The notes: generated from the letters alone by a model not told the origin. Counted from the stretch's first letter, positions 1,605 through 60,077 are shown. The stretch is DNA of 64,000 nucleotides from Botryllus schlosseri (GCA_051294905.1 CM119373.1:5210001-5274000), one strand, 5' to 3'. Translations and numbers: made by a program.

Positions 1605-1704
1605 GTGAGCTGTAGTACGAAGCCCCAACGATCGGCAATATAGAATATAGATACTTTTTCCTTCAACACAAATATCGGATATTATGAAGATAATTCTTTC
1701 GCAG

Positions 1705-1813
1705 TGACAAGCATATTGGTGTGCGAACGTGGCATGATGGTGATTGACTGCGGAAGGTCACAGAAAATCAAGATTGAAAGTGCACTGTACGGTAGAATCA
1801 AAAGAAACCAAAC
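1705..1813 (+). CDS. Lectin gene 1, N-terminal half of SUEL/rhamnose-binding lectin domain
   Basis: ttctttcgcAG acceptor; TSILVCERGMMVIDCGRSQKIKIESALYGRIKRNQ contains the CE...C...I..A.YGR motif; phase-2 donor AC|GTGTGT. It is 109 nt, the same length as the paralogous exons at 45086 and 58316. Confidence 0.9.
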
Positions 1814-2030
1814 GTGTGTTCGTATAAAGCTTGGCAGGGTGGTAGTAATACTAGCATATATTGTAGATTTCGAGAAATCACGGCCTAATTCGTACGACTT
1901 TGTGGTATATATTGAATTTGAGTATGACCATCAGTCTGAGCTGTTCAGATCCTTCATCCGGTCACTTTAATAATCGATTTTCATAATATCTTGTCTTGCA
2001 ATATAGCCAACAGAGGTGGTCAGTAACGAA

Positions 2031-3302
2031 GTACTTCTACTTTTTGGAAGTACTCAAGTAGTTTTCCTCTACTTCTGGCATTTACTCAAGTAGATCTGAT
2101 TTTCTCTACTTCTACTTCTTAATATTTTGTGATCTACTTACTTACTTTTCGCTATTTTCAGTTTGTCAAGTAGAAGTAGCTCAATCCCCCTATACGGAAG
2201 ATAGCCTGAGGAATTTCGGGGGCTGTTTTCACGGAGTACCAACATTTAATATTCATAAAAGTCAAGTCAAGTCCAGAAACTTTGTTGCGCTTAGGGCATG
2301 GTAGTGATGAAGAGACAAATATATTTTCATGAAAGTATCAGTGAATATAATTTAGGTACCGGATTGCTTGGTTGCTCACACACCGCATTGTCGCCCATAT
2401 CAAATATTTCATCACAGTAAATATGACTCACCATAACGTTTGAAACTACCGTTTCGCAATCTAGAAATTACCTATCACATCGTAATCTAGCAGCCCATTA
2501 CGTGTTTTGCTAATCTGGCTAATCCAGCTTTTGTGAACGTTACACCTCTTTTAGCAGATCACCTTTGAAGCTTTATTGACAAAAGACATGCTTTTTAGGT
2601 CACCTTTAAAGCTTTATGGACAAAAGACACGCTTTTTTAAGTGGTATTTGTATTTCACTTTCAATTGCGAGTATCATACTCTGAGTTCTAATTACTTCCA
2701 GTTCTTTTGTCTGCAGAACATACATCTTGAAGCATAAAAGCAAGTGGTATAATGTCTCTATTTTCCGAAAATAAAGCTACACTAAATATAACGATCCACA
2801 ATATTTGTTATTAACGTATACTAATCGTGCAAAGTGATGAAACCGTATCCGATACAACTTCTACGTATTGCTCTTCGCCTAAACTTGGGGCCTTATAATA
2901 TGGGGTAGGGTGCCATGCCATGTTATGCTCTAAAACGGGGTATTCAAGTAAAAAAAGGTCGGTATCGCATTTTCATATCAATACTATAATGTGCATCCCA
3001 CGATGCGAATCAATGCTTATTCTGTCGAAAATTGATACCTCCTGGGATGCATCAATACGAATCAAGCTCTCTGCACCCGCCGCATAGCTCAATTCGCAGT
3101 TTTTGACAGTCCGTGCGAATAAATTAAAACTGTTTTCAAACCTACTTACTTACTTGAGTAGATTTTAAGTCAGTCAATTCTACTTCTACTTCAAGTAGTT
3201 TCAGGTGGCTTATTGAAGAAGTACTTCTACTTGTACTTGAGTAGACTTTTTCGTCGCTACTTCTACTTCAACTTGAGTAGCTTTCTTGACTACTTTGACC
3301 AC
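2031..3302. mobile_element. Non-autonomous DNA transposon with TACTT/AAGTA subterminal arrays, in the intron splitting the gene 1 SUEL domain
   Basis: Clusters of TACTTCTACTT / TACTCAAGTAG at both ends; GTGGTCA...TGACCAC terminal symmetry. Ends are approximate. Confidence 0.55.
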
Positions 3303-3374
3303 GCCAACATTGTCATATCATGTAATAACATGCGCCATGCCGAACGTGTCAACTAAATATGATTTTCTTTATAG

Positions 3375-3558
3375 GTGCCCTCATCATAAAATAACTGATT
3401 ACAACTGCCGTGCCGAAACAACTATTGACGTCTTATCAGCGGAATGCGATAGATATTCGAGTTGCCAAGTAGCCGCTAACAACACCGTGTTCGGTGACCC
3501 GTGCAAAGATACTTACAAGTATTTGCAGGTCGAATACCGGTGCATTCCTGATAATTGA
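3375..3558 (+). CDS. Lectin gene 1, terminal exon, C-terminal half of SUEL domain
   Basis: ttttctttatAG acceptor; CPHHKITDYNCRAETTIDVLSAECDRYSSCQVAANNTVFGDPCKDTYKYLQVEYRCIPDN* has the FGDPC..TYKYL motif. The two exons join in frame and give 8 Cys. Confidence 0.92.
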
Positions 3559-6119: not shown

Positions 6120-8509
6120 CAGGGCCGTAACAGCACCTCGTCAGGCCCCCCCAAAAAAACTTTGGTCTTGGGCCCCCCATATGGTTATAGACCGAACGTC
6201 TGGGGGGCTTCGCCCCCCAGACCCTCCCTCCGGCGATACACTGTTTACCACTATTCATCATGATCATTGGGAGTTTGTTCGGTGAATCAGGTTTTGTCGC
6301 CTAAGCGCGCGACGCGCGGAAAATTTCTAGAATTCATGATTTCATCGGTCAGTATGATCGGGAATTGCGTATTTGTTATCAATTTTTATCTTATCTCTGC
6401 TGACGTAATCAGATTTGTCGGTAGAGCTGAGTGAGGTGTGTTTGAAAAGGTAGGACCACTCAATAATAACTAAACATCTTCGGGCGTATACCCGTTGGAA
6501 GGATGGAAACAGCACCTCGTCAGGCCCCCATCACGTTGTTCGCGTTTGTCACGAAATCATCTGTACTGTAATGTGAGCCGAGCCAGCGCGAAGCGCGAAA
6601 ATTTTCGATAATTTATGATAAAATCGGTCAATTAGATCGGCGATTGCATATATATTATGCTATCAATTTATTGTCTTCTCTACTCACGTAATTAGATTTA
6701 CCGGTAGAGCTGAGTGAAGTGTCTTGAAAACGGGAGGGCCCGTAAATATTGATTAAACATCTTCGGGCGGGCGGACCCGTTGATATGACTTCGTTACATG
6801 ATGTTATTTCGTGACTTCCAGTCTACTATATCAAAAAATATAGAATCGCCCAAACGTAGGCTTCTAAACTAAGAGACGCACACGATTTCAAATTGGTATT
6901 TCTTCACTGGCATAAAATTTTTCCCAGCGGGATGGTATCATCATTGGTTTATTAGCAATTTTATCAGTTCAATACACCACAAAAAATGCGATACAATGAA
7001 AAGACAGGAAGATGTCGAAGCGACAAGGAGTAGTCTATGGAATCTGACACTCACCTTGGCCTAGGCGATGTAAAGAGGAGGCATGCACACTGAATGAAAG
7101 TAAAGAAGATAGTATAGAAAAAGAATGCGACAAGAAATAGTGCGGCATGTCATGGGAAGCGAGATCGATAGGTCAGTCGTGGTCCGGTAATCTTGAGGAT
7201 GGACTGTATTTATTTAGTAGTAATTGCTTGTATTTCGACTTGAATGTGGACATGCTCGTCGACTGTCGGATGGCCGGCGGGATACTGTTCCACACATCAG
7301 GTCTGGCATATTTGATGGAGCGATGATCTTTTCGGTCGATCATATGATATTTGGACGACGTGGACGCGCGTGTGTTGTACTTGTGCGCTTTTGATTCAGA
7401 GGTAAAGAAGTCATTGAAATATTCGGGGCAACGACCGCAGTGAAACTGATACATAAACTTGGCGATTTCTATAGTTTCCGCATATCTTCTATGTTTAGGA
7501 CGCCAAATCTCTTCAGCAGCGACTTATTGGATGGGCAGCCAGGCCCCTTTGGAGCCCTAGCTATGATTCGGAGTACTTTATGCTGTAGTTTCTGCAGTGG
7601 CTTGAGTGCAGTTTTACTGGCAGCCCCCCAACAGAGGATGCCATAATGTAACTTCGATTGGATTAAGGATTTAAAGAGTATCAGAAGAACCCATGCTGGC
7701 ATGAAGCGCCCAAGGCTGTAGAACAGGCCGCACTTCGGTGATAATTTAGTTTCTAGGGACTGAATATGACTCTTCTAGGACATGTTCGAGTCCAGTAAAA
7801 CTCCGAGATATTTGGCATTATCTGTGTTGGAAACGGGCTGACCAGCGATATTAACGGTTAGGTTATTTTTTGAATTGACTGTCAGCAATTGCGATTTCGA
7901 GGCGTTTATGCAAAGGTTGTTCTGGGCCGTCCACTCATGGACTTTGAGCATTTGGTCACCAGTCAGGGCATCCAGCTCTGCCGTCGAAGATGCGGAAGTG
8001 GGGAGGTGAGTATCATCAGCGAACAGTGTGGTGTTCAATGAGGAGGTTTCAAAAATGTCGTTGACATATAAGGTATTTGTCTTGTGAGGTTCAGATTGCA
8101 AAGACAGGAACATTCGGCGCCAGTCATTCAGGCGCCTATGGACAATTAAACCTATATGTATTTTATATAGCCTATATAACGAAGTTTTCTGTCTGCAAGG
8201 GCATAGACCTTTTCGGCCAAGCTTTTCTCGCTGCCGATCGTTCTGGCACACTTCTTGGAGTCGCATATTATATGACCTAAAACTTGATTGTATGTGTTGG
8301 TGGGTCGTGGCTCGGTAATGGCCCAATACCCAATAATATAGAAAAATGGCTACTTGAACTCGCGCGTAGCGCGAAAAAATTTTGAAAAAATTGCATAAAT
8401 TTTCAAAAAATGCTCTATGATTTATGCTAATTCACGAAATAATTCTGGGCCCCTTTCGAGCTCGGGCCCCCCCAATTGGGGGGTTTGGGGTGCGGCAGTT
8501 ACGGTGCTG
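6120..8509. mobile_element. hAT-type non-autonomous element containing a nested LINE fragment
   Basis: Imperfect TIR CAGGGCCGTAAC/GTTACGGTGCTG; 8-bp TSD CCTGTGTG (6112-6119, 8510-8517). The body recurs inverted at about 30320-31180 and 39395-40330. Confidence 0.85.
6939..8071 (-). mobile_element. 5'-truncated CR1/L2-type LINE (RT C-terminal part plus 3' UTR), decayed
   Basis: Minus-strand peptides LYVNDIF..LFADDT, AKYLGVLLDSN, LHYGILCWG, HKYNTR, WNSIP; AATAAA plus a short ATG-repeat tail at the left end; 5-bp TSD GGTAT (6934-6938, 8072-8076). Confidence 0.85.
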
Positions 8510-10506
8510 CCTGTGTGCCATGGATTGTCAGAAATTTTCACGACCCAGCAAACACAGTACAGACCAAAGATGTAGAAAAGCCGAGCCGATATAGTAGATA
8601 TTAGATCTCGGCAGGTCGTAGAAAGGGGGATTTTGTGTCGACTCAATTCAACGTCTTTTCCATGTCCTTCAATAATGTAAATATTATGCAGATGCTACAG
8701 CCTTTAAACATGGTGAGTAGAATGTAGATCCTACGTTAGAAGAAGAAGATCCTGATATAATAACCTGTTTTCTACCACTATGGGCTTAACCTGATCACGG
8801 CTGCGTACACACACCACATTATTTACTACATATTAATCACATTTGTGATAATTTAATTTCAAACGAATTGGCAATAATGCCGTTGTAAAAAATAAAACGA
8901 ACAAACGAACGAATGTCTTTAGAAAGAAAGTGAAAACAGTCCTTATCATCAGGTTTCATCTTCTGATGAGCCAGTTAAATAACCAGCATGCGGCCTTTAT
9001 TTTCAACGTCCTGCAGAAATAAAATGAAAATGATGATTAATAGCTAAGACATTCGTACTGCGGAAATGGCAGAGGTGGCGACTAACGAATGACTCCTACA
9101 TTTTTTTCGCCCATACTTACTAAAATGGATTCGATTCTAAACTATTTCCACTCAAGTTTTCAAGTTTTATTATTATATTTTTTAATATTATATGACTAGA
9201 GAACTGACTTCAATCGTCACTTCTACTTGATTATTAAGATCAACGATGACTACTTCAGCACTCTTTGAAAACAGCCACTAACACAAAAAGAATTCTTGAC
9301 TAAAATTTCTTCACATTCTGTCCAAAATGATCAATTCAACAATCCAAATGAATCAGTTATTTGGCAGCTAGTTGGAGAGATATATACTCAAGTCTAGAAA
9401 GTGGAATGATACTCTGCCTGGAAAGCTGAAGACCTAACAATATTGTGTACAGAGAACAAAACATTTGAGTGGCGGCACTGGTATAGACATTAATAAATTA
9501 TTAAAATTGACAGCAAGATAACCAGCAAGACATTAAAATGAGAATTAGTGCAGTTTCTTAGGCTGTAGTGATACTCAGCCAGTAATTGACCTAGCAGAGA
9601 GCAAAACGTTGTAAATAAAGCGAGCGAAACCTCCGACAAATGATACGATAAAACATTAGAATCGACAGTCTTACTAGAAGCAGAATAACAATCATGAGGG
9701 GTTAGAGAACAGAAGCCCGAGAAGTGACCATCAGAAATTACTGCATACTGGCTGAACAAATCCATGACCACTAACAAACGGTCTTTCAATAGTCAATATT
9801 GATACCAAATGACACCACCCCTATTTCATAGCAACATTTAGCAAATACAGCGCTGGAGTCAACCTTATATAAGCCCTAACCAAACGCCCATTAGTTTTCC
9901 CACCTACTACTTCGCGGATGGAAATACGCATTAAAGCGAACGGACGCGACTTGTCACACTCTTGCTATTTCTGCTCCTTTTTTCTCTTCGTTCCTCTTCT
10001 CTGTCGCTTCCGCTTGAGGAGAGAAACAGTCGGCCGCGTTTACGGATCGTGAATTCCCGGTGGGTGATTCTTCCTCGAATGGTCAGCACCTTGAAAATTG
10101 AGAACAATGTTGTTGCAAAATGCATGACAATTTGAAAGTTACATCATTCTAATTATTCCAGTTATGGCCGTGAATCGTTACAAGTGCGGTAACCATAAGA
10201 ATTATTACTATACTTCAACTACAAATACAATATATTGTATAAAATGATTACCAATTCTTTTACGTTGATCGAGTCCCAAATAGATGAAATATGTCAAAGA
10301 ATTTGCTAAATTTTTGTATAATTTGACAGATTCCGAAATCTTCTCAAAGTGCACCTTTCAAAAATTTGATATCAAGACTCCTAACATTTTACAATTCGAA
10401 GTTGGATGGCTTCACCAATACAAGCAAACAGTTTGTATCGCAATTGACAATTATGTGGAGAACGCTGCGAGACATATGAGTAGGCCTACCCTAAAACGTT
10501 TCTCTG

Positions 10507-11198
10507 ACATGGACATTAGGGCTCTTAAAATATGACTTTTTTTCTCAAATCGTTCTGGCTACTTGGTAAAATTGTTAGGTTACCTAATTTAAGCCTAAAC
10601 ACAAAATTTGGTTCAATTCCAGCCAGTAACCGCTTTGCTACAGGAGAAGAAAGTTTCTATTCATTATATAAAAATAAATAGGTAATAAAAATTTGAAAAT
10701 TTTCTGTTCACCCCATGAAAGTGTTAGGCTGTCTATGGAAACGATGCTCACCAAATTTGGTTCAATTCCAACCAGTGGAAGCGGAGATATGGCCGTCGAA
10801 AAATTTGGATTTGAATAAAATAGTATTTACGGTGACCGATTCTTTGTTTACTTATTAAAGTTGTGCTCACCGTAAGTACTATTTTATTAAAATCCAAATT
10901 TTTCGACAGCAATAACTCCGCTTCCACTGGTTGGAATTGGACCAAATTTGGTGAGCATCGTTTCTATAGACAGCCTAACACTTTCATGGGGTTAACAGAA
11001 AATCTTCAAATTTTTTATTATTCATTTTTATATAATAAATAGGAACTTTCTTCTCTTGTAGCAAAGCGGATACTGGCTGGATTTGGAACCATATTTTGTT
11101 TCTAGGCTTAAATTAGGTAACCTAACAATTTTATCAAGTAGGCTAGCCAGTACGATTTGAGAAAAAAAGTCATTTTTGAAGAGCCCTACTGTTCATGA
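10507..11198. mobile_element. Foldback-type element with long (~300 bp) inverted arms
   Basis: About 10507-10815 is the reverse complement of about 10885-11198, e.g. TGTTAGGCTGTCTATGGAAACGATGCTCACCAAATTTGG versus CCAAATTTGGTGAGCATCGTTTCTATAGACAGCCTAACA. Confidence 0.85.
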
Positions 11199-11507
11199 CC
11201 GTCCACGTTTAGAGTTGCATCTCAAAGATGCTAAAATAAGCCTAAATATAATCCAAGCAATACGATCGTCCACTTTGACTGACTGAATTTCTAAAAACAC
11301 CTTGATAGCTTCCACATCTTACGTTTATATATACTGTCTGCTATCGGCACAACAAAGTAGGCCTATTTAAAAATACCAAAACAGATTCAACATACCACAT
11401 CTCTTGCAAACTTCTTTAAATCCTCCTTTGTGGTGAGTTGCTTTGGAATTCTTCTAGGATCAATTCCGATACTGTTTTATCATATACAATCTATGGCGGA
11501 ATAAAAG
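10952..11507 (+). repeat. Left copy of 556-bp direct duplication flanking the LINE
   Basis: Matches 14372-14927; the only difference seen is C at 11472 versus T at 14892. Confidence 0.95.
11300..11359. mobile_element. Tiny Penelope-like terminal fragment with 5' inversion (duplicated at 14720-14779)
   Basis: TCTTACGTTTATATATACTGTCTGCTATCGGCACAACAAAGTA resembles 21518-21560. The preceding CCTTGATAGCTTCCACA is the reverse complement of the TGTGGAAGCTACCAAGG motif near 21625-21640. Confidence 0.6.
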
Positions 11508-14371
11508 CTCAAAAAAATGCACAAGAGATGCACCGAGCAAAAACACCTCTTTGATGATGTGTACCATTACTGGGACTTCCTTAAAAACCAAATGAAGGTC
11601 CAAATAAAGAGATACGGCTACAAGAAAAAAGCAGCCGAAGGACAAAGAATTGAGTCGCTACAAAAACAAATCGTAGAACTCCAGAATAAAGATGATACAA
11701 AAGGAGACGTATACGAGCTAGCTAAAGAGCTCAAAAGCATTGAGCAATAAAAATTCACACGCCAATGTAAACTCCACAAAATCAGAGACATAGAAGAGAA
11801 CGAAAAGCCAACTAGGTACTTCTATCAGAAGCTAAAACAGAGGAAAGAGAAGGTTGCGCTAACCAGTGTGGTAGCACCTTCTGGAACAGCAACCAAGAAC
11901 AAAGCTGAAACGTTAGAAGCAGTCGAAAATTTCTACACTAAACTGTGGGCCAAATCACACCAGGCACAGACTCATGTCCAGAAAGACTACCTGAAAGAAG
12001 TAGAAGGACTAGAAATCACAGAGGAAGAAAAAAAACAGCTAGAATGTCAGGTAGACGAAAACGAGATTAAGAATATCCTCAACCAAATGGACAATGACAA
12101 GTCGCCAGGGTCTGACGGACTATCTAAGGAATTCTACCTGCAATACTGGAATATGATAAAACATGATTTATGTGAGGTAATAAACAATGCCTACCTTTTC
12201 GGTGGATTATGTAGCACCTGGAAAACGGGAATAACGACGATAATTTACAAAAAAGGCCAACCCACAGAATTAAAAAATTGGCGACCTATTACTTTACTAA
12301 ACACAGACTACAAAATACTCACCGGACTGATTGCTAATAGACTAAAACCAATACTACCAAACCTCATTCTTGAAACACAAAAATGTGCAATAAAAGATCG
12401 TCAAATCACGGATATTTTACGAAACACGCAAGCTGCAACAGAATACGCGAAAGAGAAAAAGAAGGAACTCCTGATAGTCAACTTAGATCAGGAAAAAGCT
12501 TTTGACCTGCTAAATCATGAATACCTTTTCAAAATTCTTGAAAGTTATCATATGCCGGAAACATTAATGCGGCTGATTAAACACATCTATAACACCGCAT
12601 CGAGTAGAATTCTGGTAAATGGCGCAATGACACACCCCATAAAACTGGGTAGAGGGATACGGCAGGGGTGTCCTCTGAGCATGGCGCTCTACGCCATTAG
12701 TTGTGACCCCCTAGCCAGGAAAATAACGAATAACGAAAAAATCCAACCCTTCAGAATCGGAAAAGCCACCATAAAAATCCAACAATATGCCGATGACATA
12801 ACTTGCTTCCTTACCAACGAAAAAGACATTGGCCGCATATTCCAGGAATTCAACAAATTCGAAAGAGCAACAGGACAGAAACTAAATGCGGAAAAAACCG
12901 AAATCTTGCATATCAACCAGAATAAGTATTCGAGCCGAAACCCGATTTACGATAATAAGAAAAAACGAAGCATAAAAATATTAGGTCAACACTACGGAAA
13001 AAATCAGATTGAAGAAACCTGGAGCGAGAAAATTGCGAAAATCAAACGAACACTATATGGCTACCGTGATAGAAAACTGACATGGGTAGGAAAGCTTACG
13101 ATCCTGAACTCCCTGGCATCAAGCCAGATCATATATAATGCGAGGGTAATAACAGCACCCAGAGAAATGAAAAAAGAGCTAGAAAAGCTATATTACAACT
13201 TCTTATGGCACCCCCAAAAGATGGAAGCAATAGCCAGACGAACGCTTATTGCAGAAAAAAAGAGAGGGGGGGTCGCAATGCCGGACGTGGAATCAAAGTT
13301 CAAAGCGTGTGAACTTGAAAAAATTGTCGCGCTGAAAAAATTGGATCAACCGAAGGAGATATGGCATCAACATGCCATATACGAAATCGGCACAAAATTG
13401 AAACAAATTAACCCCGTGCTCTATAATAACTCTGAGCCGCATAAATTCCCGACACCCAAAAACTGGGTGGAAAACCTGGAATTAACAAAAAAAATAAAAC
13501 TCACAAACGATGAATGGGAAGTCGCATCTCACAAAACGCTATACAAAGAAGTCAAGAAACTGAAAGAAAACAATCCAAATATTAGAACAAAAAACGGAGA
13601 CGAAATCAACTGGAAAAAAATTTGGCAATCGAAACATATGGGACATAAAGTAATTACCAACGAGGAAATAATTATAAACTACAAAGTAGTCCACGAAGGA
13701 TTCATATTTGGGGCAAAACGGAAAAGCAGAAACTTGACCCATGACAAAGATAATAAACCGCTCAATCTTAATTGCAAATTTTGCAATAACGAAAAAGATG
13801 ACATAAGACACATACTAACAGAATGTAAATATACAAACGAAATTAAACTCCATGTTGAAAGAGCGCTCGGAATAACAATAAACGAAAATAACATACTCTA
13901 CAACCATAAAACGGCGAAAATAATGTGGATAATACTATCCATATTAAAGAAGGTTGTGATAAAATTCAAAATCGCTCTAGATATTGATAATAGAAAAGCA
14001 GGAGAGGAAAAACTTGGAAGAAAGATCCTGGAAAAATTCATTACCAGAATGAAAAGAGTACCAGAAAATGAAAACATCAGCGAAATTATCGCAAAAACTG
14101 ACGGATACCTACAAATTCTGTAGAAATTTTTAAAAGTAAAACTATTGTGATTACAGTGGGGGGAGTAAAACATGAGTATAGCAGTAAAATAGAGAAGCTA
14201 AAAAGAATGAGAGAAACCGTTTTATCAAGTTGAACCATTTAATCACCTAAGTTGGAAAATATAAAAAAATAAAAAATAAAGTGTAATCAAGACCCCGAGC
14301 ACGCGACAGCCCTACACATACGAGAGGGCTGCCGAACGCCGGCGGATACGGGGAGCCGTATAAAAAAAAAA
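11508..14371 (+). mobile_element. 5'-truncated non-LTR retrotransposon, L1/Tx1 group
   Basis: ORF2 remnant, about 240-nt 3' UTR and A10 tail (14362-14371); no endonuclease domain or ORF1; bounded exactly by the 556-bp duplication. Confidence 0.92.
11517..14123 (+). pseudogene. LINE ORF2 reverse transcriptase, N-truncated, one in-frame stop at 11748-11750
   Basis: KSPGSDG, NWRPITLLNTDYKI, LDQEKAFD, GIRQGCPLS, QYADD and C-terminal CKFC-x8-H-x4-C motifs. ORFs 11517 and 11868 are in the same frame, and reading through the TAA gives ENEKPTRYFY. Confidence 0.92.
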
Positions 14372-14927
14372 TGAGCATCGTTTCTATAGACAGCCTAACA
14401 CTTTCATGGGGTTAACAGAAAATCTTCAAATTTTTTATTATTCATTTTTATATAATAAATAGGAACTTTCTTCTCTTGTAGCAAAGCGGATACTGGCTGG
14501 ATTTGGAACCATATTTTGTTTCTAGGCTTAAATTAGGTAACCTAACAATTTTATCAAGTAGGCTAGCCAGTACGATTTGAGAAAAAAAGTCATTTTTGAA
14601 GAGCCCTACTGTTCATGACCGTCCACGTTTAGAGTTGCATCTCAAAGATGCTAAAATAAGCCTAAATATAATCCAAGCAATACGATCGTCCACTTTGACT
14701 GACTGAATTTCTAAAAACACCTTGATAGCTTCCACATCTTACGTTTATATATACTGTCTGCTATCGGCACAACAAAGTAGGCCTATTTAAAAATACCAAA
14801 ACAGATTCAACATACCACATCTCTTGCAAACTTCTTTAAATCCTCCTTTGTGGTGAGTTGCTTTGGAATTCTTCTAGGATCAATTCCGATATTGTTTTAT
14901 CATATACAATCTATGGCGGAATAAAAG
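14372..14927 (+). repeat. Right copy of 556-bp direct duplication
   Basis: Starts immediately after the LINE poly(A) and matches 10952-11507. Confidence 0.95.
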
Positions 14928-15019
14928 TTTCGGATAAGTTCTAAAACGAACACAATTTTCCACACAAAAGTCAATTGCCACACGAAATGCCAAATGCTAC
15001 GGTCTCATTTTACAAGGTA

Positions 15020-16225
15020 TGGCGAGGAAACGTAGTGGTACGTTCCATTATAGCTAAACACCAATGAATTGCGGGTTCTAGCGTGACAAGTCGACTCCAT
15101 AATTCCTACCGAAGTGTTGGCCGTTTATCTAGGCTCCTCCTCGCCATCTGATTCGCATAGCCATGTCTTAAAAAGCCTAGGAGTGGGCCGTGCTGTAAGT
15201 GGGCAGATGGTTGCCGATGCACCCGGCACTTGGTGAATTCGGCCGCACAAACTCGGCACTTGGTGAATTCGGCCCTTGGGAAATTTTGAAATGAAGTGTA
15301 TTTACAGCTATTAATATGAATTATCAAACTAATAATAGTATTATCAAGTGATTCGTCAATCTTGTAAGGAGGTCAGGGCATCCGTAGATCGCGCAGTCAC
15401 GGCGTGATTAGATCACGGATTGCGTAGCCACGGGAAATAACACAGCGCTCATATACCGACCACGCGCGGTCTGCTTGGAATCGATGGCGTGAGCCACGGG
15501 CCTGTGTCGTGTAAGTTTTGAGAAGATGGATCTTGGCGTTGTATGTGAGATCAAAACTGTGGAACATCAAGCGGCGCTTCTTCGTTTATCGATCACGACA
15601 AGCCAGTGTTCCTCATCAACAAATGTTTCGCATGATCACGTCAAAATAAGTTATTTTTTGCCATTGGAGAGACGATTCCACTCTGGGATTAGGGTGTCTC
15701 GATAACACGGTTGAAGGATCCCAAGATTACGAGATCTACCACGAGCCACGACACGTTTAAATTTCCTTTTTGATACTGTTCATTCATACTAAATGCATTT
15801 CTAATGCGAAGGTGTTCTAGTGCCAATTCCTCCAAGGGCCGAGTTCACCAAGTGAAGAGCGTCGCGTTATTTCCCGCAATTACGCAATCTGTGATCTAAT
15901 CACGCCGTGACTGTGTGATCTACACATGCCCTGACCGCCGTACAACATTGACAACCACTCAAAGTGCCAAGTTCACCGGCAAACATTCCAGTAACCAATC
16001 ATGGTGACCGGTACCGCTACGAGATCTACCACGGCCGAATTCACCAAGTGCGGAGTTTGTGCGGCCGAATTCACCAAGTGCCGAGTTTGTGCGGCCGAAT
16101 TCACTAAGTGCCGAGTTCACTGGTAATCGGGCAGATACGGAATAATAATAAGAAGAACCGGCCTGGTGTAAAATGACCAGTGTAGTCGAACCACCACCAT
16201 GAACACCACAAACAAACAAATAAAC
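15020..16225 (+). mobile_element. SINE family B copy split by a DNA element
   Basis: Head ACACCAATGAATTGCGGGTTCTAGC and body match the reverse complement of 62290-62590; the body resumes at 16137 and ends in (CAAA)n. Confidence 0.7.
15209..16128. mobile_element. Non-autonomous DNA transposon with 30-bp subterminal tandem repeats and internal inverted repeat
   Basis: 8-bp TSD GGGCAGAT (15201-15208, 16129-16136); GGCACTTGGTGAATTCGGCC units on the left and their reverse complements on the right; inner IR at about 15345-15445 and 15865-15958. Confidence 0.8.
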
Positions 16226-17999: not shown

Positions 18000-20900
18000 G
18001 TAGGTGAAGAGTGGTTTCTGGTCATGATTACGCAATTTAGACATTAATTCCAGTCCTAGTTTCGTTCTACTCATATATTGCTTCGTTCTTGCTTCATATA
18101 TTACGTGGATATCAACATTGGCACTTATTTAACCTACCTTTGGATGACATGTGACGTCACAATAGTTTACATGCCCAGCTTCCACCACAAAATCCCTCTC
18201 AACCTGCCGATCTCTCGCGCACACCGGCTGACTGCATGGCTCGGGGCTACTCAAGTGAGACCGTAGACACTTCAATACTGAATGCAATCGACGGCAGATG
18301 ATATCATCTGAGCTGACATACACATTGGACGACCTTTTCTGGTGATGTGTGCATATGTAGACATTCTGGGATCACTGAGAAGAATTATTTCGGCCAATTA
18401 TACGTGTTTGTCCAATATTGTGTATCTCAATGCGCAATGTGGTGTCTCAATGGACGATTTCGATTTAGAGCAGAGGTCTCAAACACGCGGCCCGCGGGCC
18501 GCATGCGGCCCGCGAGATCATTTTGAGCGGCCCGCGACGGCATTTTGGATTTCGAAGTATTCGACAATATTTTACCACCAATTCTTGAGAACTTAAAATT
18601 CGCTCTAAAACTACTCCAGAAGCCTGAAACTACTCATCAAACTTCACTATTACATCACTTTCAAAAGTTACCACTCAGTGGAAGATCAACTATTACGTGA
18701 CATTACTTGTTTAATATGGTAAAACATGACCCGTTGATGATTCGTGATTGAAAATTGTGATTTGGACTTGGGCGCGACCCTCTGTAGAATTACTCGTACT
18801 CGTCACGTCAAACGTTACAATCAGAGAAGATTTTGTGACTCGGAATGCCGTGACTTGGTACAACCACGCACGCAACAAACCATGGTGTCCTGTATGGTGT
18901 GGACACAAGCAAATCTCACGGCTCAGTGAAATTGGTTTACGTCACACTTTCCATTTGGTCGAAGGCAATTTGACAGTAATTTTTGTCCGGCTTGTCCTGT
19001 ATTAGCCTAAATTTTATAAAACGGCTATCAATCGAAAGCTACCGCGGTACTGATTGCGAAAATATAAATTTCTTCTGTTTGTGGCCCTGGAACTACCCAA
19101 AATAAGCCTAGAATGTTGCATTGTATGTGAGTTTGGTATTGTGATGCAGCAATGACGTCTGGCAGCAGGCGAGGAGCACCGCAAGCTGCAAGCGTATTGG
19201 CCATCGTTACGCAGGCGATTGAGCACTCTCACTCTCGTGCGCATTTGCTCCTGAGCTGCGCAGACGGCATGGTTGCGTCACAGTACCAAACTCACTTACA
19301 ATGCAACATTTGAGGCTTATTTTGGTGAGTTCCAGGGCCACGAACAGAATAAAATTTATATTTTCGCAATCAGTACCAGACATGGGGTGATTACTTTATG
19401 AATGTAATCGATTACGATTACGATTACTTCTGAATCACGCGATTACGATTACGATTACGATTACAGCAAAATCAGGAAGTAGTCGATTACGATTACGATT
19501 ACATTGGAAAAGTAATCACGATTACTCACGATTACATTTATTTCGCTTCGTAGAACTAGTCTTAGAATATATATTGAAGACAATAAGGATGCGATGAAAA
19601 TACCTAATGAGAGATGACAACTATCTTTATAAATGATACGTCAGTTGATTGTTACGTCATAATGTACCCATTGCCCAGCTCTATAGTGCTGGACGATTCA
19701 TCGCACCCAACGATTTGAATTCTTGCCAGGTTCGTAATTGCCGCACCCCAAACTCCCCAATGGAGTACGGAGCGAGGTCGTAGGAGAATTAAAAGTATTT
19801 CGTAAATCAACATTAATTATATGAAGTATTTCGAGAGATTTCATTCTTCTAGCTCCGCGATTTAATGTCTCTAGATAGCTTGATTTTGAAATGCATACCT
19901 GTCCCCTTAAGACAAGACGGGAATAATTTATAGGCATTTCGGTGCCGGTCATTAACGCGCCAGGACACACCAAAAGTCATATGCAGTTTCGGCCAACTTG
20001 CGACCTCACGAAGTGCGCTACCAAAGAAAGAACTTTACCGACATGTTGGGTACGCCTGTGTGTCCATTATCAATAGCCGCGCAGGGTGGGTGTGACGAAT
20101 ATATAGAGCGTTGTCCTTAGAATCTGAGCGCCACATTACAAATGTCACCCGGGGCCCCCACAGATGAATGAGACATGACAATTTGTGTGTGCGACGCACA
20201 TTGTTCGTCTCTCGTCTCAGGAAAGTTCTTCATTAGTCTTCTACGTTTGGACGACTACAATATACAATATGATTATAGGCTATACTACAGACGAGAGGTC
20301 ACGAATTAACAACATATATTAATTGTAGTTATAACAATATCAGATATTATAGCTATGAATTACGTGCCCCAGATCTACCAGTAAATCTAACCATCGGGGG
20401 CTGAGAGAGGATTATTATTGAATAATCAAAGACAAACGTTAGGAGTGGGGGGGGGGGGGGTGACTTGCCGTTTTGGTCCTGATTCTAGCTACAACCCACG
20501 CTGACATGGTGTATAAGCGTATATCTATGGCGACAGGTCCAAATGTTGACTGAAAAATTGCGAAATAACGATGACGCCCGTTTCAGCCAGACTCATATGA
20601 TAATAAGATAAAGTGAACATAAAATTTGGTGTTTCACTTAATACAGATACTGCAAGCTGCCGTTACGAGAAACGGCAAAGAACGGCTCGGTTATGATAAA
20701 TATCAGCAGCTGTTGATTTTTATTGTTTCGTCGTGGAAATCGTAATGTCTCATTTGACGAGTACAAAATTTCACATCTTTGTTCGATGTACGTACCTAAG
20801 TATGCCAACTTACATAGGCGAGGTCTACTGCTCGCCAAGCAGCAACGGTCAAACTGCTTCAGATAGGCATAACCAAACATAAATACAAATGTTAGTATTT

Positions 20901-21107
20901 GAAAATATAGGCAGAATGGTGATTATTATGCTGCTGCGAGGTAGTTGTGTGTGGAGTGTATTGATAACCTGATATACAGCATGACGGGTGTTCTCACAAC
21001 TACACTACAATGTAGGCCTACATCGAATATCTATATTTTACGTAAGACCTTAGTAGCTTTCACACTCTATTTAACGTCCACTTGCGAATGAATATAACTT
21101 TATTAGT

Positions 21108-21145
21108 TACACGAGCTTTCGGAGCGCTGCTCCTTCATCAGGTGT
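21108..21145 (-). ncRNA. Minimal type-I hammerhead ribozyme, minus-strand copy
   Basis: Reverse complement reads ACAC-CUGAUGA-A-GGAGC-AGC-GCUCC-GAAA-GC-UC-GUGU. Confidence 0.7.
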
Positions 21146-21418
21146 CAAAGCGAAAGTAACGCAAAAAGAGCAACGCAAAAATATTTTGAATTTGAACATA
21201 TGCGTATTATGACATCATAGCGAATGAGAAATTCTAGATACTGAAGTCGCGTACTCTATGACGTCATAGAGACAAATATCAAGTTTTGATTTGAAATGCA
21301 AATAGTGAGTTGTGTGCCTAAAATCGGATTGGATAAGGTGTTTATATGCTAATTTGAAAAGAACAAAAAGTGCTAAGTCAAGCATTCATGGTGTAGTGAG
21401 ACATACATCCTCTATCTA

Positions 21419-21457
21419 TGCACCTGATGAAGGAGCAGCGCTCCGAAAGCTCGTGTA
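21419..21457 (+). ncRNA. Minimal type-I hammerhead ribozyme
   Basis: Stem I UGCAC/GUGUA; core CUGAUGA 21424-21430; stem II GGAGC/GCUCC; GAAA 21445-21448; palindromic AGCU stem III; predicted cleavage after UC at 21452. Confidence 0.75.
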
Positions 21458-22320
21458 ACTAATAAAGTTATATTCATTCGCAAGTGGACGTTAAATAGAG
21501 TGTGAAAGCTACTAAGGTCTTACGTTTATATATATCGTCTGCTATCGGCGCAACCAAGTATATTTTACGTGTAACTAATAAAGTTATATTTATTCGCAAG
21601 TTGACGTTAAATAGGATGTGGATTGTGGAAGCTACCAAGGTATTAGTTTTATATATATCGTCTGCTATCGGCGCAACATAGCATTCATTCTATTTTATGT
21701 GTGTAGCTTACACAATGACGAACACAGCTAATACTTCTGACGTAATAATGAGCAGCGACGATTGGAAGTCAGACGTTTGTGCTATCACTGACCTCAACCT
21801 GGTATAATATCTCTTCCTTGTTCACGAATGTTCAGTTTATGTCATAGTTCTTGTACGTACAGATTAAAAGTAATCGTTCTTCCTCTAAGAAATCGATTAA
21901 ATATAGGAAGTAGTCGATTACGATTACGATTACTTCGGATTTTTCTCGAATGTAATCGATTGCGATTACGATTAATTGAAAATGCTGTAATCGTCGTAAT
22001 CGATTACGATTACTAATCGCGATTACCCCATGTCTGATCAGTACCGTGGTAGCTTTCCATTGATCAAAAATTACTGCCAAATTGCCTTTGACCAAATGGA
22101 AAGTGTGACAAAGACAAATTTCACTGAGCCGTGAGATTTACTTGTGTCCAAACCATATAGGACACTTTGAACAAACTATCAAACTGGTAGGAGAAATAGT
22201 AAAATATCAAAAGGTCGTAGCTTGCGTTGTGTAGCTTATTTAGATATCAAAGCATGTAGGTATGGCAACCGACATTGGCATTATGTCGCCCCTTTGATGT
22301 ATAGTTGGTTACATCCCGTG

Positions 22321-25047: not shown

Positions 25048-25522
25048 AATATATATATATATATATATATAAATATCGACTTTCAATTAAATAATTACAT
25101 AAAAGGGCAAAAGAAAACAGGAAACAAAAGAACATCAAGATAATCCATTTTGGGCCCTTGTTAAGCGCCTCCACCGTGGGCGGTCGTGGGCGTCTTCGAG
25201 CGAAAGCCCTCGTTGCGCTAGCTCGGTCTCTATTGTCGAGCGCCATGTGGTTCTACTCCGGCCACCTCTGCGCCATGGCTCCGTCGGAGTGTGGTTGATG
25301 ATGGCGGCGGCTGGTTGATCGTCTTGATGCTGCACTAGATGACCGATTAGGCGGAAGCGTCGTTCAGCAGCCAGCAAACGGCATGGGACCGTTTTTGTAA
25401 GTTTGTGTAGAGCATTGGTGGATATGTGCTCCGGGTGGTGGATGCCGAGTGCGTATCGGAGGAGTGCATCGTAGTTGGCGTTGAGTGTCTTAGCCCTATT
25501 CTTAGTCTTAGTCTTAGTCTTA
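25048..25522 (-). mobile_element. RTE-clade LINE 3' fragment with (TA)n tail
   Basis: RRFRLIGHL...RRGGRSRTTW...AHDRPRWR resembles an RTE ORF C-terminus; the same 3' end occurs at 23085-23210; TATTAATAT at both flanks; (CTTAGT)n at the 5' junction. Confidence 0.7.
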
Positions 25523-26679
25523 TTAATATGACCGGTCGTCGAAATGGTTGGTACCGAATAGTCTGAGTAGAATGTCAGTACAAGTGCGACCCGTGGTCAA
25601 ATAATACACTCCAATTTGAAATCGTGTGAGTCAGACATGTTCAAGTTCATGGAGCTGCATTGCGTACGACTGCTGTCTGCGCGTTCTTTATATTGTATAC
25701 ATGCCTGTAAAAAGTAGCATAGTTGTATTTAAAATGCCTAAAATGTGATGTGTGAGGCTTGGGTCCCGAGAAGCGACTAAAACTCGGATTTATGTCTCAG
25801 TCAAAATGGTTGAAGAACCACTGCTTTATATCATCGCATAAAAGCTTGAGAACCACTGGTCTACGTCACAGTTTTTCAGACAATGGGCCGTTCACATCGG
25901 TAGGCCTATAAAGTAGGTTACAAAAGGTCAAATGTCAAATGATAAGTTCACCGACAATGCAAGCATCTATGGTACAAACGAAATGCAGGTTGCAAACTTT
26001 TTTTTGACTATGTGAACAAGTTAGACAAGTTTTACCTAACGCTACCATTTTGACAAAATTTTGACTTATTTTGACATCTCAAAAAGACATCACCGTACGC
26101 ATCACGAATCATATGTATGAGTTGAGTGTATGTCCTGAGTCTTGAGTTCCTGAAAACACCGTTTGAGAACCACTGATATACCTACTACGTGTGCATAATT
26201 CGCTATGCACCGACGAAGTAGGCTAATACTTGTCACAATGAGCAGCGGGGTTTGAAAACCCAACGTTTCTGCTATCAATAACCTGCTATAATATCGCATT
26301 ATATTTTATAGATTTTGTTTTATCATCTCCTAGTACTTCTTAAAGTTAAAAGTGATCGGTCTTTTACAAAGAAATCGATTAGATATGCGAAATATTCGAT
26401 TTGGATTACGATTACTTCGGATTCTTTCGAATATATTTGATTGATGTTACGATTACTTGAAATTGCTGTAATTGTCGTAATCGATCACGATTACTAATCA
26501 CGTCTACCCCATATCTGCTCGGTATATAACCTCTAATTTCCATATCCACTAAGCAGCATGTGATAACGATGTAATTCACTGCTTCCAATTCAGAAGTAAA
26601 ACTGTACGTCGCAGAATTCATTCCACATTTGTATTCTCAGCTCTAAATCAGTCTAGTTTAGTCGTCCAAATCTGTCGGC

Positions 26680-27261
26680 ACTGTCGTAGTCGCGTGTATG
26701 GCTTCGAAGTATCAAAAGTTGTTCACAAATATTTTTCCAATAGTCTGCCTACTGTGTTTGATGACTTTTTCATACCTGCTAAACATGTCCATTCCCATTA
26801 CACGAGATCCTCGTCTAAAAGAAACATCTACTTACCCCCACCCAATAGCAACCTAACTAAGAGATCTATCGACTACTCGGGACCTATCATCTGGAATGCA
26901 TTACCACCACATATCCGTGAATTGCCTTATAATAGATTCAAAAAAGCCCTACTTGATCACCTCTTGTCGTTACACTAACACTGTTGCCCTACCTCGCCCA
27001 GACATTGCTTCATTGATCATTTGCCACCATTGTTTGATTTTTTTTCTATTTTCCTTTAACTAAACATTTCTTTACAGCAAGACTGTTCAGAGTCAAGTGT
27101 ACCTGTTTGATGCTGGTGTGATCAGACTAGATGACCTTCACGGTCTTATCGATCATTAATATCTAATACCGAATACTGTGCACGCATATTTTCTGTACCA
27201 CCATCACTGCCGTTTGTTATGTATTTTAGTTCGATGAAAATAAAGACTCTCTCTCTCTCTC
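26680..27261 (+). mobile_element. CR1/L2-type LINE 3' fragment
   Basis: FDDFF...HSHYTRSS...SIDYSGPIIWNALP...FKK resembles the 7173-7454 peptide; 3' UTR ends AATAAA-G-A(CT)n. Confidence 0.8.
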
Positions 27262-44432: not shown

Positions 44433-45085
44433 GTACCAATCCAAATGAAGCAGGTGACGAATATTCAATTGTGACGTCATTTCGGATTGACATTGACAGT
44501 TGAAAATATATGGTAAATATAGCTCCTTTGGCGAAATATCTGTACTATTGCTGTTGAATTTACTATTTGGATGGTTCCAACCATCCCATGTCGATATACG
44601 TCGGCTATATCGAGTGCTGGCTGTCCGTAGACTCATACAACATGTTTTTTGGAAAGTATTTACACATTTATAGCATAATTTTATAACTGAAGAAAAACAC
44701 AATTTTTTTTAAGAAGGTCTTTGTTTAAAACACTGTTTAAAACATGTTTTAAACAAAGTGTTCTAAAACACCGTTTGTTTTTATTGCAACCCTATTTATA
44801 AACACGTTATTTTTAATTTGCAACATTTGTAGAATCTTCTTTGTTTCGTCCGGCATCCGAAATATTGCCAGTTTTTTAGGGATGTCGCTGGTGATCGTAT
44901 GCTGGTGCGAATACCACGAATATCTCATTGCTCAATGACAATCAGTCAACATGACTTGACGCAATAGTGATGACGTAATCCGCCCCTTGCCCACCTGTTT
45001 CTAACATTTTGCACATCGTAACTTATCGTTATGTTCAGCATTCGTAATGGAGATATTGCATATTTAAAGTGTGAATTCTTTGCAG

Positions 45086-45194
45086 CGGAAACGAAATTCG
45101 TCTGCGAAGGGAGGACGATGAGTCTAAATTGCCTGACTCCGAAGAAGATCAAAATCGAAAGTGCCACTTACGGTAGAAGTACGGGCGACCTACG
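45086..45194 (+). CDS. Lectin gene 2 exon 3, N-terminal half of SUEL domain
   Basis: ttctttgcAG; ETKFVCEGRTMSLNCLTPKKIKIESATYGRSTGDL; phase-2 donor CG|GTATGC; 109 nt. Confidence 0.92.
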
Positions 45195-45559
45195 GTATGC
45201 ATGGACGTTTGCGCGTTATTCAAGTTACGAAAATAGTTCTCACTAACACATCTCATTGAGTTGTTATCAACCGATTTTCCCTGTTGACACTTCTCGGGTT
45301 GAGTCTTATCATCACATCGTCATATAACATCACGGACATATAGTTGCTTGTAGTTAGATTTGTGCGGTAGCAAAAGCTCCAATACACCCATATTGATGGA
45401 ACACAATCACTATAGTTTCGTAAATCTCTAATTAGCCCATTATTCATATATTGCGATGCGTGACAATAGTTTCATCCCGTAATTATATATAAATCACGAT
45501 ACAGTGATGTAGAATCCACACCAAGAGTCATTGAATTAGAGAAATTCCTGATTACCAAC

Positions 45560-47013
45560 CAGAGTTGGATCAATTGTAATTTGTAATTGAGCTGAATGTA
45601 ATTAATTACATTTTTCAATGTAATTGTAATGTAATTGTAATTGAAGCATTTTTATTTTGTGTAATTGTAATTGTAATTGTAATTTGACAAAAATTTTGCC
45701 AAATTACAATTTCAATTACATTAAATTGCTATTGAGACCTGACAAGCACAACATAAAATAATTGACTTATAATTCATTCTCTTTAAATGTCGACAAGGAA
45801 TTTGGTGGATCCATTCGCGGAAGCCCTTGACTGCGCCCATGCGGGCGAAGTCTTTTATTTTTACCGCTATGCTGGCCTCGGCTGCCATTGTATACAATTA
45901 TTAGATTACTAACCAACGGATGGATTCGCAACACGTGACTCACGATTGAATACGCCGAGAAGCGAACTGCTGAGCCGGCTAAAAGCAGCAGAATTGATAA
46001 TCCCATAGCTGGCGATCCAAGCGTCGAAATTTGATATGTATGGTCCTAATCGAAAGCTAGTGTCGCACTGATTCCGCAATAAAAGTATATTTCCAGGCAA
46101 TGGCACCATCCCAAATAGTCGTGAAAGTCTGGGAATCGGCATTGTTCTGAACAATCGCTAGGCGTAATTAGTCATTGTTGTGGTCATGCTGCTGCGGCGC
46201 TCTCACTTTTCAGAACAGTCGGCCTTAAAGGGCTATTTTGGAGCAGTTACATTGCTCTGACGACATTTTAATTTGTATTTTCGGAATTAGTGCATCAATA
46301 ACTTACGATAAAGACCAGATGCATCAAATTTGGACGCTTGGATCGCCAGCTCTAGGACTACAAAGTTTGCTGCTTTTAGCCGGCTCTGCAGTACGTTTGT
46401 CAGTGCATTCATCCGGGACTCACATCTTGTGAATCCATCCGTGGGTTGGCAATCTACAATACGATTTCAGATCACGATGCTGCATCGTTACTTCGTCTGG
46501 CTAACTAACCATATCACTGGATATTATATAACGTCTTATCTGGCAAAGCACGGTTTTTTTTTACTCCTCATCCTAATTCCTACGTCCCTCGATAAAAATA
46601 ATATTATTTCATTAATTATATACTGTATACGCAAATCCAACACGTGAATATATTATAATACTTTTTTCAACGACATACTGCATACTGGAATAGTTCGAAA
46701 ACGTTTTTTCTTTTTATTAATAAACGGGTATTTGCGTATCATGCATGAAACATGAATACTTGAATTGTTGTTTATTACGACGCTACGGTTGTCAAGGAGC
46801 ACGGTTGAATTTATGATTATTCAATTACATGTTCAACAGCAGCAATTGTAATTGTAATTGTAATGTAATTGAAGCATGCAACGAGTAATTGTAATTGTAA
46901 TTGTAATTTGATATTTTCAGCATGGAGTAATTGTAAATGTAATGTAATTGAGACATGCATGAAAGTAATTGTAATTGTAATTGAACTGAAATAATGTAAT
47001 TGATCCAACTCTG
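45560..47013. mobile_element. hAT-type non-autonomous element with (GTAATT)n arrays, in gene 2 intron 3
   Basis: TIR CAGAGTTGGATCAATT/AATTGATCCAACTCTG; TSD TTACCAAC on both sides; inner IR at about 45903-46035 and 46322-46455. Confidence 0.9.
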
Positions 47014-47169
47014 TTACCAACAGAGGTTTTCAATAGAGGATTTGTGTGGCAAGATATATTTACATTTGTTTGTGTATTCAAGTAGGCACTTTACCGTACT
47101 TCATTGCGATACCTTCGTATCTGTCGATGAAGCGCAAATGTCACTAGAAAATCACATCCCCATTAACAG

Positions 47170-47344
47170 GTGCCCCCACGATAGGATCACGACAGACGGA
47201 TGCCATTCCCAGAAGAGTACAGAGATTGTATCTGAGGAATGCGACGGAAAGTTGCAATGCGACGTTCACGCTAAGAACAGTGTCTTTGGAGATCCGTGCG
47301 CCAATGTACATAAGTATTTGGAGGTTCACTATTATTGTATGTAA
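47170..47344 (+). CDS. Lectin gene 2 terminal exon, C-terminal half of SUEL domain
   Basis: taacAG acceptor; CPHDRITTDGCHSQKSTEIVSEECDGKLQCDVHAKNSVFGDPCANVHKYLEVHYYCM*. Confidence 0.92.
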
Positions 47345-58042: not shown

Positions 58043-58315
58043 GTGATGACTGATATACATACATTTGGTACATTTATAATTTTGATTTGCAGAGGGCTAT
58101 CAAACTATGTTGTTTTCATTGGTGAAATATTCTGAACTCAGTCTTCCATGGAGTCAAGCATCTACTCCGTATGTAGGCCTACATATCTCCTATGAGTACA
58201 CTCAGGCGCATACCTATGGTATTGCGTCTGTGATGGCTCATGTCCACATCACTTCTTTTTATTTTTATAAGTTACTGTAAATTCAAATCACGCTTGGAGA
58301 ACGTCTCATTTGCAG

Positions 58316-58424
58316 CCAAAACGATACTAGCATGTGAAAGGCGGAAGATAACCATAAGTTGCAAGGCTTTTAAAGCAATCAAAATTGAAAGTGAGAGTTA
58401 CGGTAGTAGCAGGGAGGACAAAAG
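58316..58424 (+). CDS. Lectin gene 3, N-terminal half of SUEL domain (partial or possible pseudogene)
   Basis: tttgcAG; KTILACERRKITISCKAFKAIKIESESYGSSREDK; phase-2 donor AG|GTATGT; 109 nt. The C-terminal exon was not found in the window. Confidence 0.8.
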
Positions 58425-60077
58425 GTATGTAAATCTGTTTCTAGGGTGCCTAAATGTTATAATACAGCGATTATTCATAAATGACATGAAATTCTCACAC
58501 AGATATTCTCATAACTATATATCGCATAACGTAAAAATTTTCTTTTGGATTCAAAAATACATGATTGGCTACGTGTTTGTATTGGCTACCATTCCGGTGA
58601 AAATGGATCTCATCTGTAACTGACTACAAGGAGGAATCCTTATACCATCACTCACAGCATCATGAAAATGGAAATGATGTCATCTATATCGTTTACATTT
58701 ACACGGGAAGTAATCCTCATATCGCGGGCCATAATCGGAAACCTCGTAGGTTGCACGTGGGCGTGTTTGAGAAACCATGATCACGGTATTATTACAATAA
58801 CTAGACTAAATAACCACGCACTTTTGTAAGCTGCTGAATCAATAACTATTTCCGACGATGAGCATCATGACGTAGCTATACATCATCAGACTTCGGACCT
58901 TATATGAATAAAACGGGTTTCCACCTACATATATTCCTGCCAGGCCTATACATAATTAAAATATACATTAATCGTGATAGGACCTATTTACTAGTAAAAT
59001 AAATAAAGTAATGACATTAATGGTATATTGTGATGTAATGTTGTTCGAACACCAACCGTAGCAACAATCAAAAATATTCCTCGCATCAAACTCAAAATAT
59101 ATCAGTGGTGCACAAACTGTGGGTCGTGAGACCATGCGAGGTCGCTGATACAGCAGATAAACTGCGCAGCGACGTAATAATTCGATGTAATGCAAGTTAA
59201 GGATTCATCGGACGTAAGACACCTATTTGCTTACTGTAATTTTACTATAAACAATCTCAAATACTTCTTAGGTACACGAGTAAACAACACTTGCTACAGA
59301 TCTAATGTGTTTATTATTTACGTGCTAATTTTGATAGTTGAAGAAAGTCGAAAGTGCCAAAGTGATAAACGCAAAATTAAGGCGCCAACCAATATGAATA
59401 TGTGTCAAAATTCCGATATTTGGCACCCAAATATACCAAATGTCAATACTTGTATTGACTGCTATCACGTGTCCTGTTCGTACACGGTGGAGATTTCCGA
59501 ACACCTGATCCCGATTCCATTACTTCTCTTTCTTTCGGCTGTGACGTATTTCTCTCGGGCGGAAACATTCTCTCCAACTTTGCAATATAAACCCATCGGA
59601 AGCGTTCCACACATGTGAATTTTAAAACCACAGCTACCAACAAGATGTCAGAATTGCTTCGAAACGACAAAATTTACCGATTCACTGTACTCCTATTAAG
59701 TTTATTTTAATTATTTCAATTCAGAAAAGGGAGAAATAATGGCAATTTCATCCGCACTCAATCGCACCACGCTTGTCCTTTGCCCTGAATTTGATTATCT
59801 TCCGTATGTGCCATCCCACTGGTTAAACAGCACTGGCCTCATCATGTATTTGGTGAATTACATTCAGTATGTTTCCCCATTGCCGTGCATTTGATTGAAA
59901 TACCTTGTTTCGTAACTTTTCATTATCACGAACTCGTTGAACAATGTTCGCTTTACAGATCTCCCTTCCGTGGACCAGGAAGAAACGAGGCCATGCCGCA
60001 AATAGTAAAGAAGTTGTTTCTAAAATCTGCGACGGAAACATATGTTGTGAACTTGGAGTTAATAATAAGATGTTTGA

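Follow-up and report, generated by a model that had tools for sequence, protein, structure and literature searches.

Lying together in a 64,000-nucleotide stretch of one strand of the Botryllus schlosseri genome (GCA_051294905.1 CM119373.1:5210001-5274000; hereafter the window) are a foldback element, a truncated LINE and two direct copies of a 556-bp segment. The wider setting is one of lectin-like reading frames (1644-3555, 45046-47341 and 58297-60075), the SUEL_Lectin cut-off being passed by two of the four candidate frames scanned. The nearest lectin-like frame ends ~7.4 kb upstream of the duplication and the next begins ~30 kb downstream, so that, while an earlier note made from the sequence alone was right that lectin-like frames are near, its placing of the structure 'inside' a lectin gene cluster is loose. 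Its further thought, that this would be a means by which a retroelement duplicates host DNA within such a cluster, is not borne out for the lectin genes: the duplicated 556 bp are repeat-derived and without a lectin exon, the link is one of proximity only and, given the repeat origin of this DNA, there is no evident effect on lectin genes.

Table 1. Features in and around the duplicated target (positions counted from the first nucleotide of the window)
Feature	Position	Strand	Remarks and basis
Foldback, gene-less, MITE-like, struck in right arm	10508..11197	.	Probable core 10519-11186 with TA either side; self-complementarity; related contigs very numerous in each of 4 runs
Left copy of duplicated target	10952..11507	+	246 bp from the distal part of the foldback right arm and 310 bp of further repeat-derived DNA; high summed contig depth
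AG microhomology, 2 nt, between target end and LINE 5' truncation point	11506..11507	+	Alignment begins at 11506 in X2 record 29 and in X17 record 12
5'-truncated LINE, L1/Tx1 group, 2864 bp	11508..14371	+	Family contig extends 2019 nt farther upstream; domain, relative and contig alignments
ORF2 remnant: RT domain, C-terminal CCHC-type knuckle, without endonuclease domain	11508..14123	+	Premature stop 11748-11750; translation, domain search, contigs
GC-rich 3'-terminal structure	14293..14361	+	Long hairpin 14293-14345, then 6-bp tetraloop hairpin 14346-14361 adjoining poly(A); folding
Poly(A), 10 nt	14362..14371	+	No extra bases before right copy; sequence
Right copy of duplicated target, continuous with original right flank	14372..14927	+	Self-match; X18 record 24 spans 14827-15194

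When the window is matched against itself, 10952-11507 and 14372-14927 align at an offset of 3420 with identity at 555 of 556 positions, the sole mismatch being C at 11472 and T at 14892. BLAST gives E=0.0 for this self-match at 99.8%, which puts a chance match far from plausible, and similarity at that offset is lost on either side of the two segments. The direct repeats adjoin the LINE base-exactly at either end, and the right copy follows the ten A's with zero extra nucleotides. In these respects the earlier note is borne out: it had described 556-bp direct copies with one mismatch, a 2864-bp 5'-truncated L1/Tx1-type LINE exactly between them (upheld by the RT domain, the start of homology at 11508 and the poly(A)), a right copy beginning directly after the poly(A), and a poly(A)-side nick within one arm, in fact the right arm, of the foldback. 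The length that it gave holds as the length of the match and is refined for the duplication itself to 554-556 bp once the AG microhomology is allowed for, family contigs aligning from 11506. A search around the structure for terminal repeats of some larger host element yielded only short chance matches.

One long frame, of 790 amino acids (11751-14123), occupies most of the space between the copies and contains an RT domain (PF00078, E=3e-36). ORF2 homology begins exactly at 11508 in four of the five relatives aligned back, and this position equates to residue 277-283 in three relatives of 1149-1166 amino acids (279 of 1153 and 277 of 1149 in the two closest). Those two, ~1150 amino acids long and 56-57% identical, have an APE endonuclease domain (PF03372) and RT only, and since the APE domain is upstream in them, the copy appears to have been truncated just behind the endonuclease. 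Among ten hits to solved structures in the PDB, human L1 ORF2p scored 186-188 bits versus 68-81 bits for R2 proteins; because of this ranking the LINE is, as judged from its sequence and at the level of the group only, assigned to L1/Tx1. The annotation 'Transposon TX1' is carried by a single relative, 31% identical. A C-x2-C-x7-H-x4-C in the translation was read by eye as a CCHC-type knuckle, and inspection by eye of the ~100 residues after it gave no PD dipeptide such as marks a second, restriction-like endonuclease. The folded structure at the 3' end has z = -3.6, with 1 of 200 shuffles equally stable; Rfam returned no match on the LINE 3' end, and the window has no SINE partner with a matching terminal hairpin.

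Contigs from four of 24 listed runs were aligned to the window. X1 (incompletely counted) and X2 share a sample, from which the assembly itself may have been made, so that they are not independent of it; X17 and X18 come from two other studies. An X2 contig of 4742 nt aligns to the 2723 nt of 11506-14228, differing at 11 of them, and has a further 2019 nt upstream; an X17 contig of 2454 nt likewise matches from 11506, with 355 nt upstream. That upstream sequence, read as LINE, is in both cases unlike the 556-bp segment, so the segment is not in the element's 5' side, and the common starting point at 11506 means that target and LINE have in common the two bases with which the left copy ends, a 2-nt microhomology. 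In all four runs the frame is open where the window has its stop codon (11748-11750), the family contigs end at 14228, before the LINE 3' end, and the family is young. Contig depth summed over the flanks and the duplicated segment is tens to thousands of times that of the LINE bins (a ratio which is not a copy number), from which it follows that the segment is repeat-derived DNA. With flanks of such high copy, none of the contig pieces listed from the four runs spans the structure or crosses an inner junction, which is no evidence either way, and an empty allele, which would show as a skip of 3420 bp, is not among the joints listed (15 of 15+164, from contigs only). Three long skips that are listed (10834-14541, 10941-14437 and 10946-14536), none being of 3420 bp, most likely represent foldback-family variants aligned across both copies. 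Some X1 and X17 contigs depart from the window at 14827-14830, inside the segment and where both copies are identical, a hint that both may carry one local variant of the host repeat. Other copies of the LINE with their flanks were sought in 63 candidate stretches, with just one distant locus resulting (34%, L001), and in 2 viral and 18 genome contigs, with none; the LINE 3'-end pattern had 0 matches in metagenome contigs.

Of the four junctions, the two outer ones look ancestral. That on the left (10951/10952) sits mid-arm in the foldback and is mirrored by the left arm; that on the right (14927/14928) is crossed, with 5 differences, by a contig from another study (X18, 14827-15194). Both inner junctions are LINE ends joined to host DNA, and they look new. 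From its sequence the original site would accordingly have been flank-copy-flank, as a target duplication demands. As to age, the LINE and the X2 family contig differ at 11 sites, nine of which are in coding sequence. Third codon positions account for 7 of the nine, for which a random spread has P=0.008, and 5 of the nine are silent; this suggests that many of the 11 were inherited from an active source. If between 1 and 8 of them are true post-insertion changes, 0.4-3.3 mismatches are expected between the copies and 1 is seen; were all 11 post-insertion, 4.5 would be expected (P=0.06 for one or fewer). By this test, which is of low power, insertion and duplication can be of one age, as a single recent event would have it.

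Very probably, then, the structure is a large TSD resulting from one LINE insertion, if variants invoking a family trait or a cruciform are counted in. Narrower, and still probable, is the reading that we prefer: one TPRT event with a host-assisted accident, in which the cDNA became linked to an end of host DNA ~555 bp off. The bottom strand would have been nicked opposite 10951/10952, priming reverse transcription at the poly(A); the first nick and priming are placed there because the intact tail joins the right copy directly. The sequence around this nick, TTTGG/TGAGC, is unlike the TT/AAAA cleavage motif of human L1, and the nick was presumably endonuclease-dependent. Synthesis of the cDNA would have ended ~2.9 kb in, where the copy is seen to stop just short of the endonuclease region. 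Its end, as the junction displays, was joined via the 2-nt microhomology (expected by chance in ~7% of cases) to a top-strand 3' end at 11505-11507, and this would have happened in place of joining to a nick 10-20 bp away. That end was most likely supplied by the host, be it from a distant nick with strand displacement, from a sister chromatid that had broken or from break-induced replication over a short stretch. Fill-in would then give flank-copy-LINE-copy-flank, and all three sources yield the same final sequence. Microhomology is described as the usual mark of 5'-truncated inserts in the relevant part of PMC4245944. TPRT with a second cleavage 556 bp away, as the earlier note proposed, thus stands in part: an insertion-associated long TSD fits the junctions, poly(A), truncation, ancestral outer junctions, ages and the absence of the segment from the element's 5' side. 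Rather than reflecting a programmed step, the duplication most likely befell this young, low-copy family once, as an accident.

The novelty that was implied for so long a TSD was set too high, similar sizes having been published for several LINEs (in the portions concerned of PMC5223499, PMC2666801, PMC9977147 and 10.1101/2024.12.14.628481). Engineered human L1 in cultured cells gave large TSDs (Gilbert et al. 2002 and 2005, as cited in PMC5223499 and PMC2912911), and Servant et al. (PMC5223499) report TSDs >100 bp for <10% of events in HeLa versus 57-91% in NER-deficient lines, the tabulated lengths including 503, 516 and up to 6765 bp. Those insertions are similarly 5'-truncated, with poly(A) and repeats of hundreds of bases, and a distant second nick is the explanation offered there; they differ in being reporters in HeLa or NER-deficient cells at T-rich sites, whereas here we have an endogenous invertebrate copy in an assembled genome at a G/TGAG site. 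In tumours, tandem duplications bridged by L1 have been attributed to joining of cDNA to a downstream sister-chromatid end, or to replication from the reciprocal end, and the small ones are called large TSDs (according to the passages on them in PMC7058536 and 10.1101/2024.12.14.628481). Their final structure is identical to the present one, though they are somatic, human and 1-10 kb up to 22.6 Mb in extent, and this one is 0.56 kb and presumably inherited. Zebrafish ZfL2-2 left a long TSD of 1228 bp in 1 of 25 cases in DT40 cells (PMC2666801, in the pertinent part), again a rare product of an APE-type LINE in wild-type cells, albeit one of the L2 clade in heterologous cultured cells; for the LINE here APE is known from its two closest relatives. 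Natural insertions with flanking duplications of similar size are those of Dualen-4b_cRei of Chlamydomonas, over half of which have a duplication exceeding 50 bp, the median being 900 bp, and of rotifer R9, with 126 bp (the account of Dualen, and the citation of R9, being in PMC9977147). With Dualen this is a family trait that its describers, in that account, tentatively link to two endonucleases, whereas no second endonuclease is evident here; by analogy, the present insertion would work like the long-TSD insertions of human L1 and would not be a Dualen. HERV-K sites with 111 and 250 bp are also recorded (in a section of PMC5488345). The literature search, with most subscription papers and supplements, possible homes of such cases, outside its coverage, brought up no tunicate or Tx1 long-TSD case, and 10.1101/522623 was a false lead in it.

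Might the LINE's own machinery routinely cut the second strand hundreds of bases off? The precedent of Dualen-4b, which does so in more than half of its new insertions, with R9 at 126 bp, and the youth of the family speak for such a trait, but with APE and RT only in the two closest relatives, no PD dipeptide seen after the knuckle, and long TSDs in so small a fraction of L1 events in HeLa and of ZfL2-2 events in wild-type DT40, we regard it as quite unlikely. A more specific form, which is a long shot, would be that a single-endonuclease Tx1-like family nicks splice-donor-like GG/TRAG, often in the abundant foldback, and regularly leaves duplications of hundreds of bases; were it true, the family would be the natural counterpart of Dualen in an animal, producing tandem duplications locally in the germ line, and could serve as a model of second-strand cutting. 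The foldback itself had been offered by the earlier note as a cause, via cruciform extrusion, and an extruded and cut foldback with LINE cDNA patching the staggered break, without the element's endonuclease, can claim that the poly(A)-side junction falls in a palindrome of 690 bp (88% self-complementary over 699 columns and folding at -299 kcal/mol as single-stranded DNA) and that the nick lacks the human L1 motif. That nick is, however, mid-stem, 100 bp from the palindrome centre in perfect pairing (the nearest arm mismatches being at 10940 and 10965), with no tip or bulge, and the second break, on the LINE 5' side, is 310 bp beyond the foldback. Foldback arms together make up 4.2% of the window, so that one of two ends would fall in such an arm by chance in ~8% of cases; moreover the atypical-site inserts in the relevant part of PMC5223499 are without poly(A), and the present LINE has one. 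A cruciform origin is on this evidence unsupported and very unlikely. Tx1-clade elements often prefer DNA transposons as targets by sequence, as with Tx1 in Tx1D and Tx1-Mar in Mariner-N4_AMi (PMC4494074, in its treatment of those two), and here too an L1/Tx1-group LINE is inside a high-copy non-autonomous DNA element, although at one site only and with the TSDs of co-mobilised SINEs there being ~10-16 bp. Such a sequence preference would be a simpler reason than a cruciform, if the overlap is not chance, and the foldback was most likely a bystander whose role, if any, was that of a sequence target. On the foldback Rfam gave only sub-threshold microRNA models, at the palindrome centre.

Other readings dispense with a long TSD. 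An assembler that repeated 556 bp, or joined two haplotypes through the LINE, is unlikely to be responsible: while no record among contigs of 4 of 24 runs spans a segment made of high-copy repeats, the one-base difference between the copies speaks against literal re-use, the inner junctions are base-exact with the hallmarks of a genuine insertion, a haplotype stitch demands one family inserted at two nearby sites, and the window is without N in an assembly that would seem highly contiguous (231 windows on 3 pieces). The identical final structure would arise if two alleles or chromatids had each been hit, one at 10952 and one near 11507, by insertion or by an endonuclease cut, and unequal crossover or an exchange of ends had then followed by way of the LINE; end exchange between L1-made breaks is described in the corresponding part of 10.1101/2024.12.14.628481. 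This course of two events is very improbable. It requires that a family of low depth should have struck twice in 556 bp, and 7-20 bp upstream of the 5' junction the best resemblance to the first nick site is 5/10, equalled at 64% of random places. Further, alleles 1-2% apart, an assumed heterozygosity, would bring 5.6-11 differences (P of one or fewer from 0.025 to 0.0002) and two paralogous host repeats ~10 (P=0.0003). Least credible of all is that the 556-bp segment belongs to the element or is a transduction travelling with it; the family contigs do end at 14228, short of the 3' flanks of other copies, but those from two studies run 5' of 11506 into sequence unlike the segment, which is moreover placed after the poly(A) and not before it, and begins mid-arm in a foldback whose other arm stands in place upstream.

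An oversized LINE target duplication by TPRT, as preferred here, is a known, uncommon accident, encountered in this case in a natural animal genome. Of all steps in LINE insertion, second-strand cutting and 5'-end joining are understood least and, with most long target duplications being known from cultured cells or tumours, a clean natural invertebrate case is an illustration that the long-TSD outcome can persist in a genome. Searches for TSDs limited to ~30 bp overlook such copies; a survey of primate L1 genome insertions covered those of 5-30 bp only and urged study of longer ones (PMC2912911, in the part concerned). Recombination between the two copies could excise the LINE and leave no trace. 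A single copy is insufficient to settle the mechanism, and the matter would gain in importance if the whole family behaves alike.

Separately, the context of the first nick resembles a splice donor cut after its first G, and GGTRAG is present 37 times in the window, counting both strands, which is mentioned as a lead only.

The 3' end of the LINE folds as a pair of GC-rich hairpins. The second, a perfect 6-bp stem closed by a four-base loop, lies immediately 5' of the poly(A). Rfam gave no match for these 3'-terminal hairpins and no second copy of the structure was found within the 64-kb window; the pair may be the 3' recognition signal of the element. At the poly(A)-side junction the sequence reads GG/TGAG (10947-10957, slash at the junction), which resembles a splice donor with the cut falling behind its first G.

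One contig from another study (X18) covers the left flank and runs on into the arm of the foldback (10000-10584, depth 106), and another covers the right flank (14827-15194, depth 93.5). Since these depths are similar, the LINE may have landed in a composite repeat that is larger and present in many copies, in which case the other copies could act as empty sites. Among other public runs, X5-X16, labelled as organisms B, C and D together with several metagenomes, contained 0.23-0.38 of the words sampled from 10000-16000, a sharing for which relatives, contamination or shared repeats may each account.

The TA at both edges of its probable core likens the foldback to a MITE. Four further foldback or MITE-like elements are present in the window, and one of them (21040-21525), given the full complementarity of its arms, is by sequence very young.

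Features of the window
Feature	Position	Strand	Detail
Two GC-rich hairpins, LINE 3' end	14293-14361	+	folding, z = -3.6
Foldback, probable core	10519-11186		TA on either side (10517-11188)
Foldback or MITE-like	15211-16126
Foldback or MITE-like	19046-19377
Foldback or MITE-like	21040-21525		arms 105 bp, 100% complementary
Foldback or MITE-like	45902-46456
Older LINE-like fragment	7173-8431	-	RT match below threshold (22.8 bits)
Older LINE-like fragment	25135-25596	-	no Pfam match
Older LINE-like fragment	26553-26978	+	no Pfam match
SUEL (rhamnose-binding) lectin-like exons, set 1	1644-3555	+
SUEL lectin-like exons, set 2	45046-47341	+
SUEL lectin-like exons, set 3	58297-60075	+

All three sets of lectin-like exons share one strand, and the third looks more diverged than the other two.
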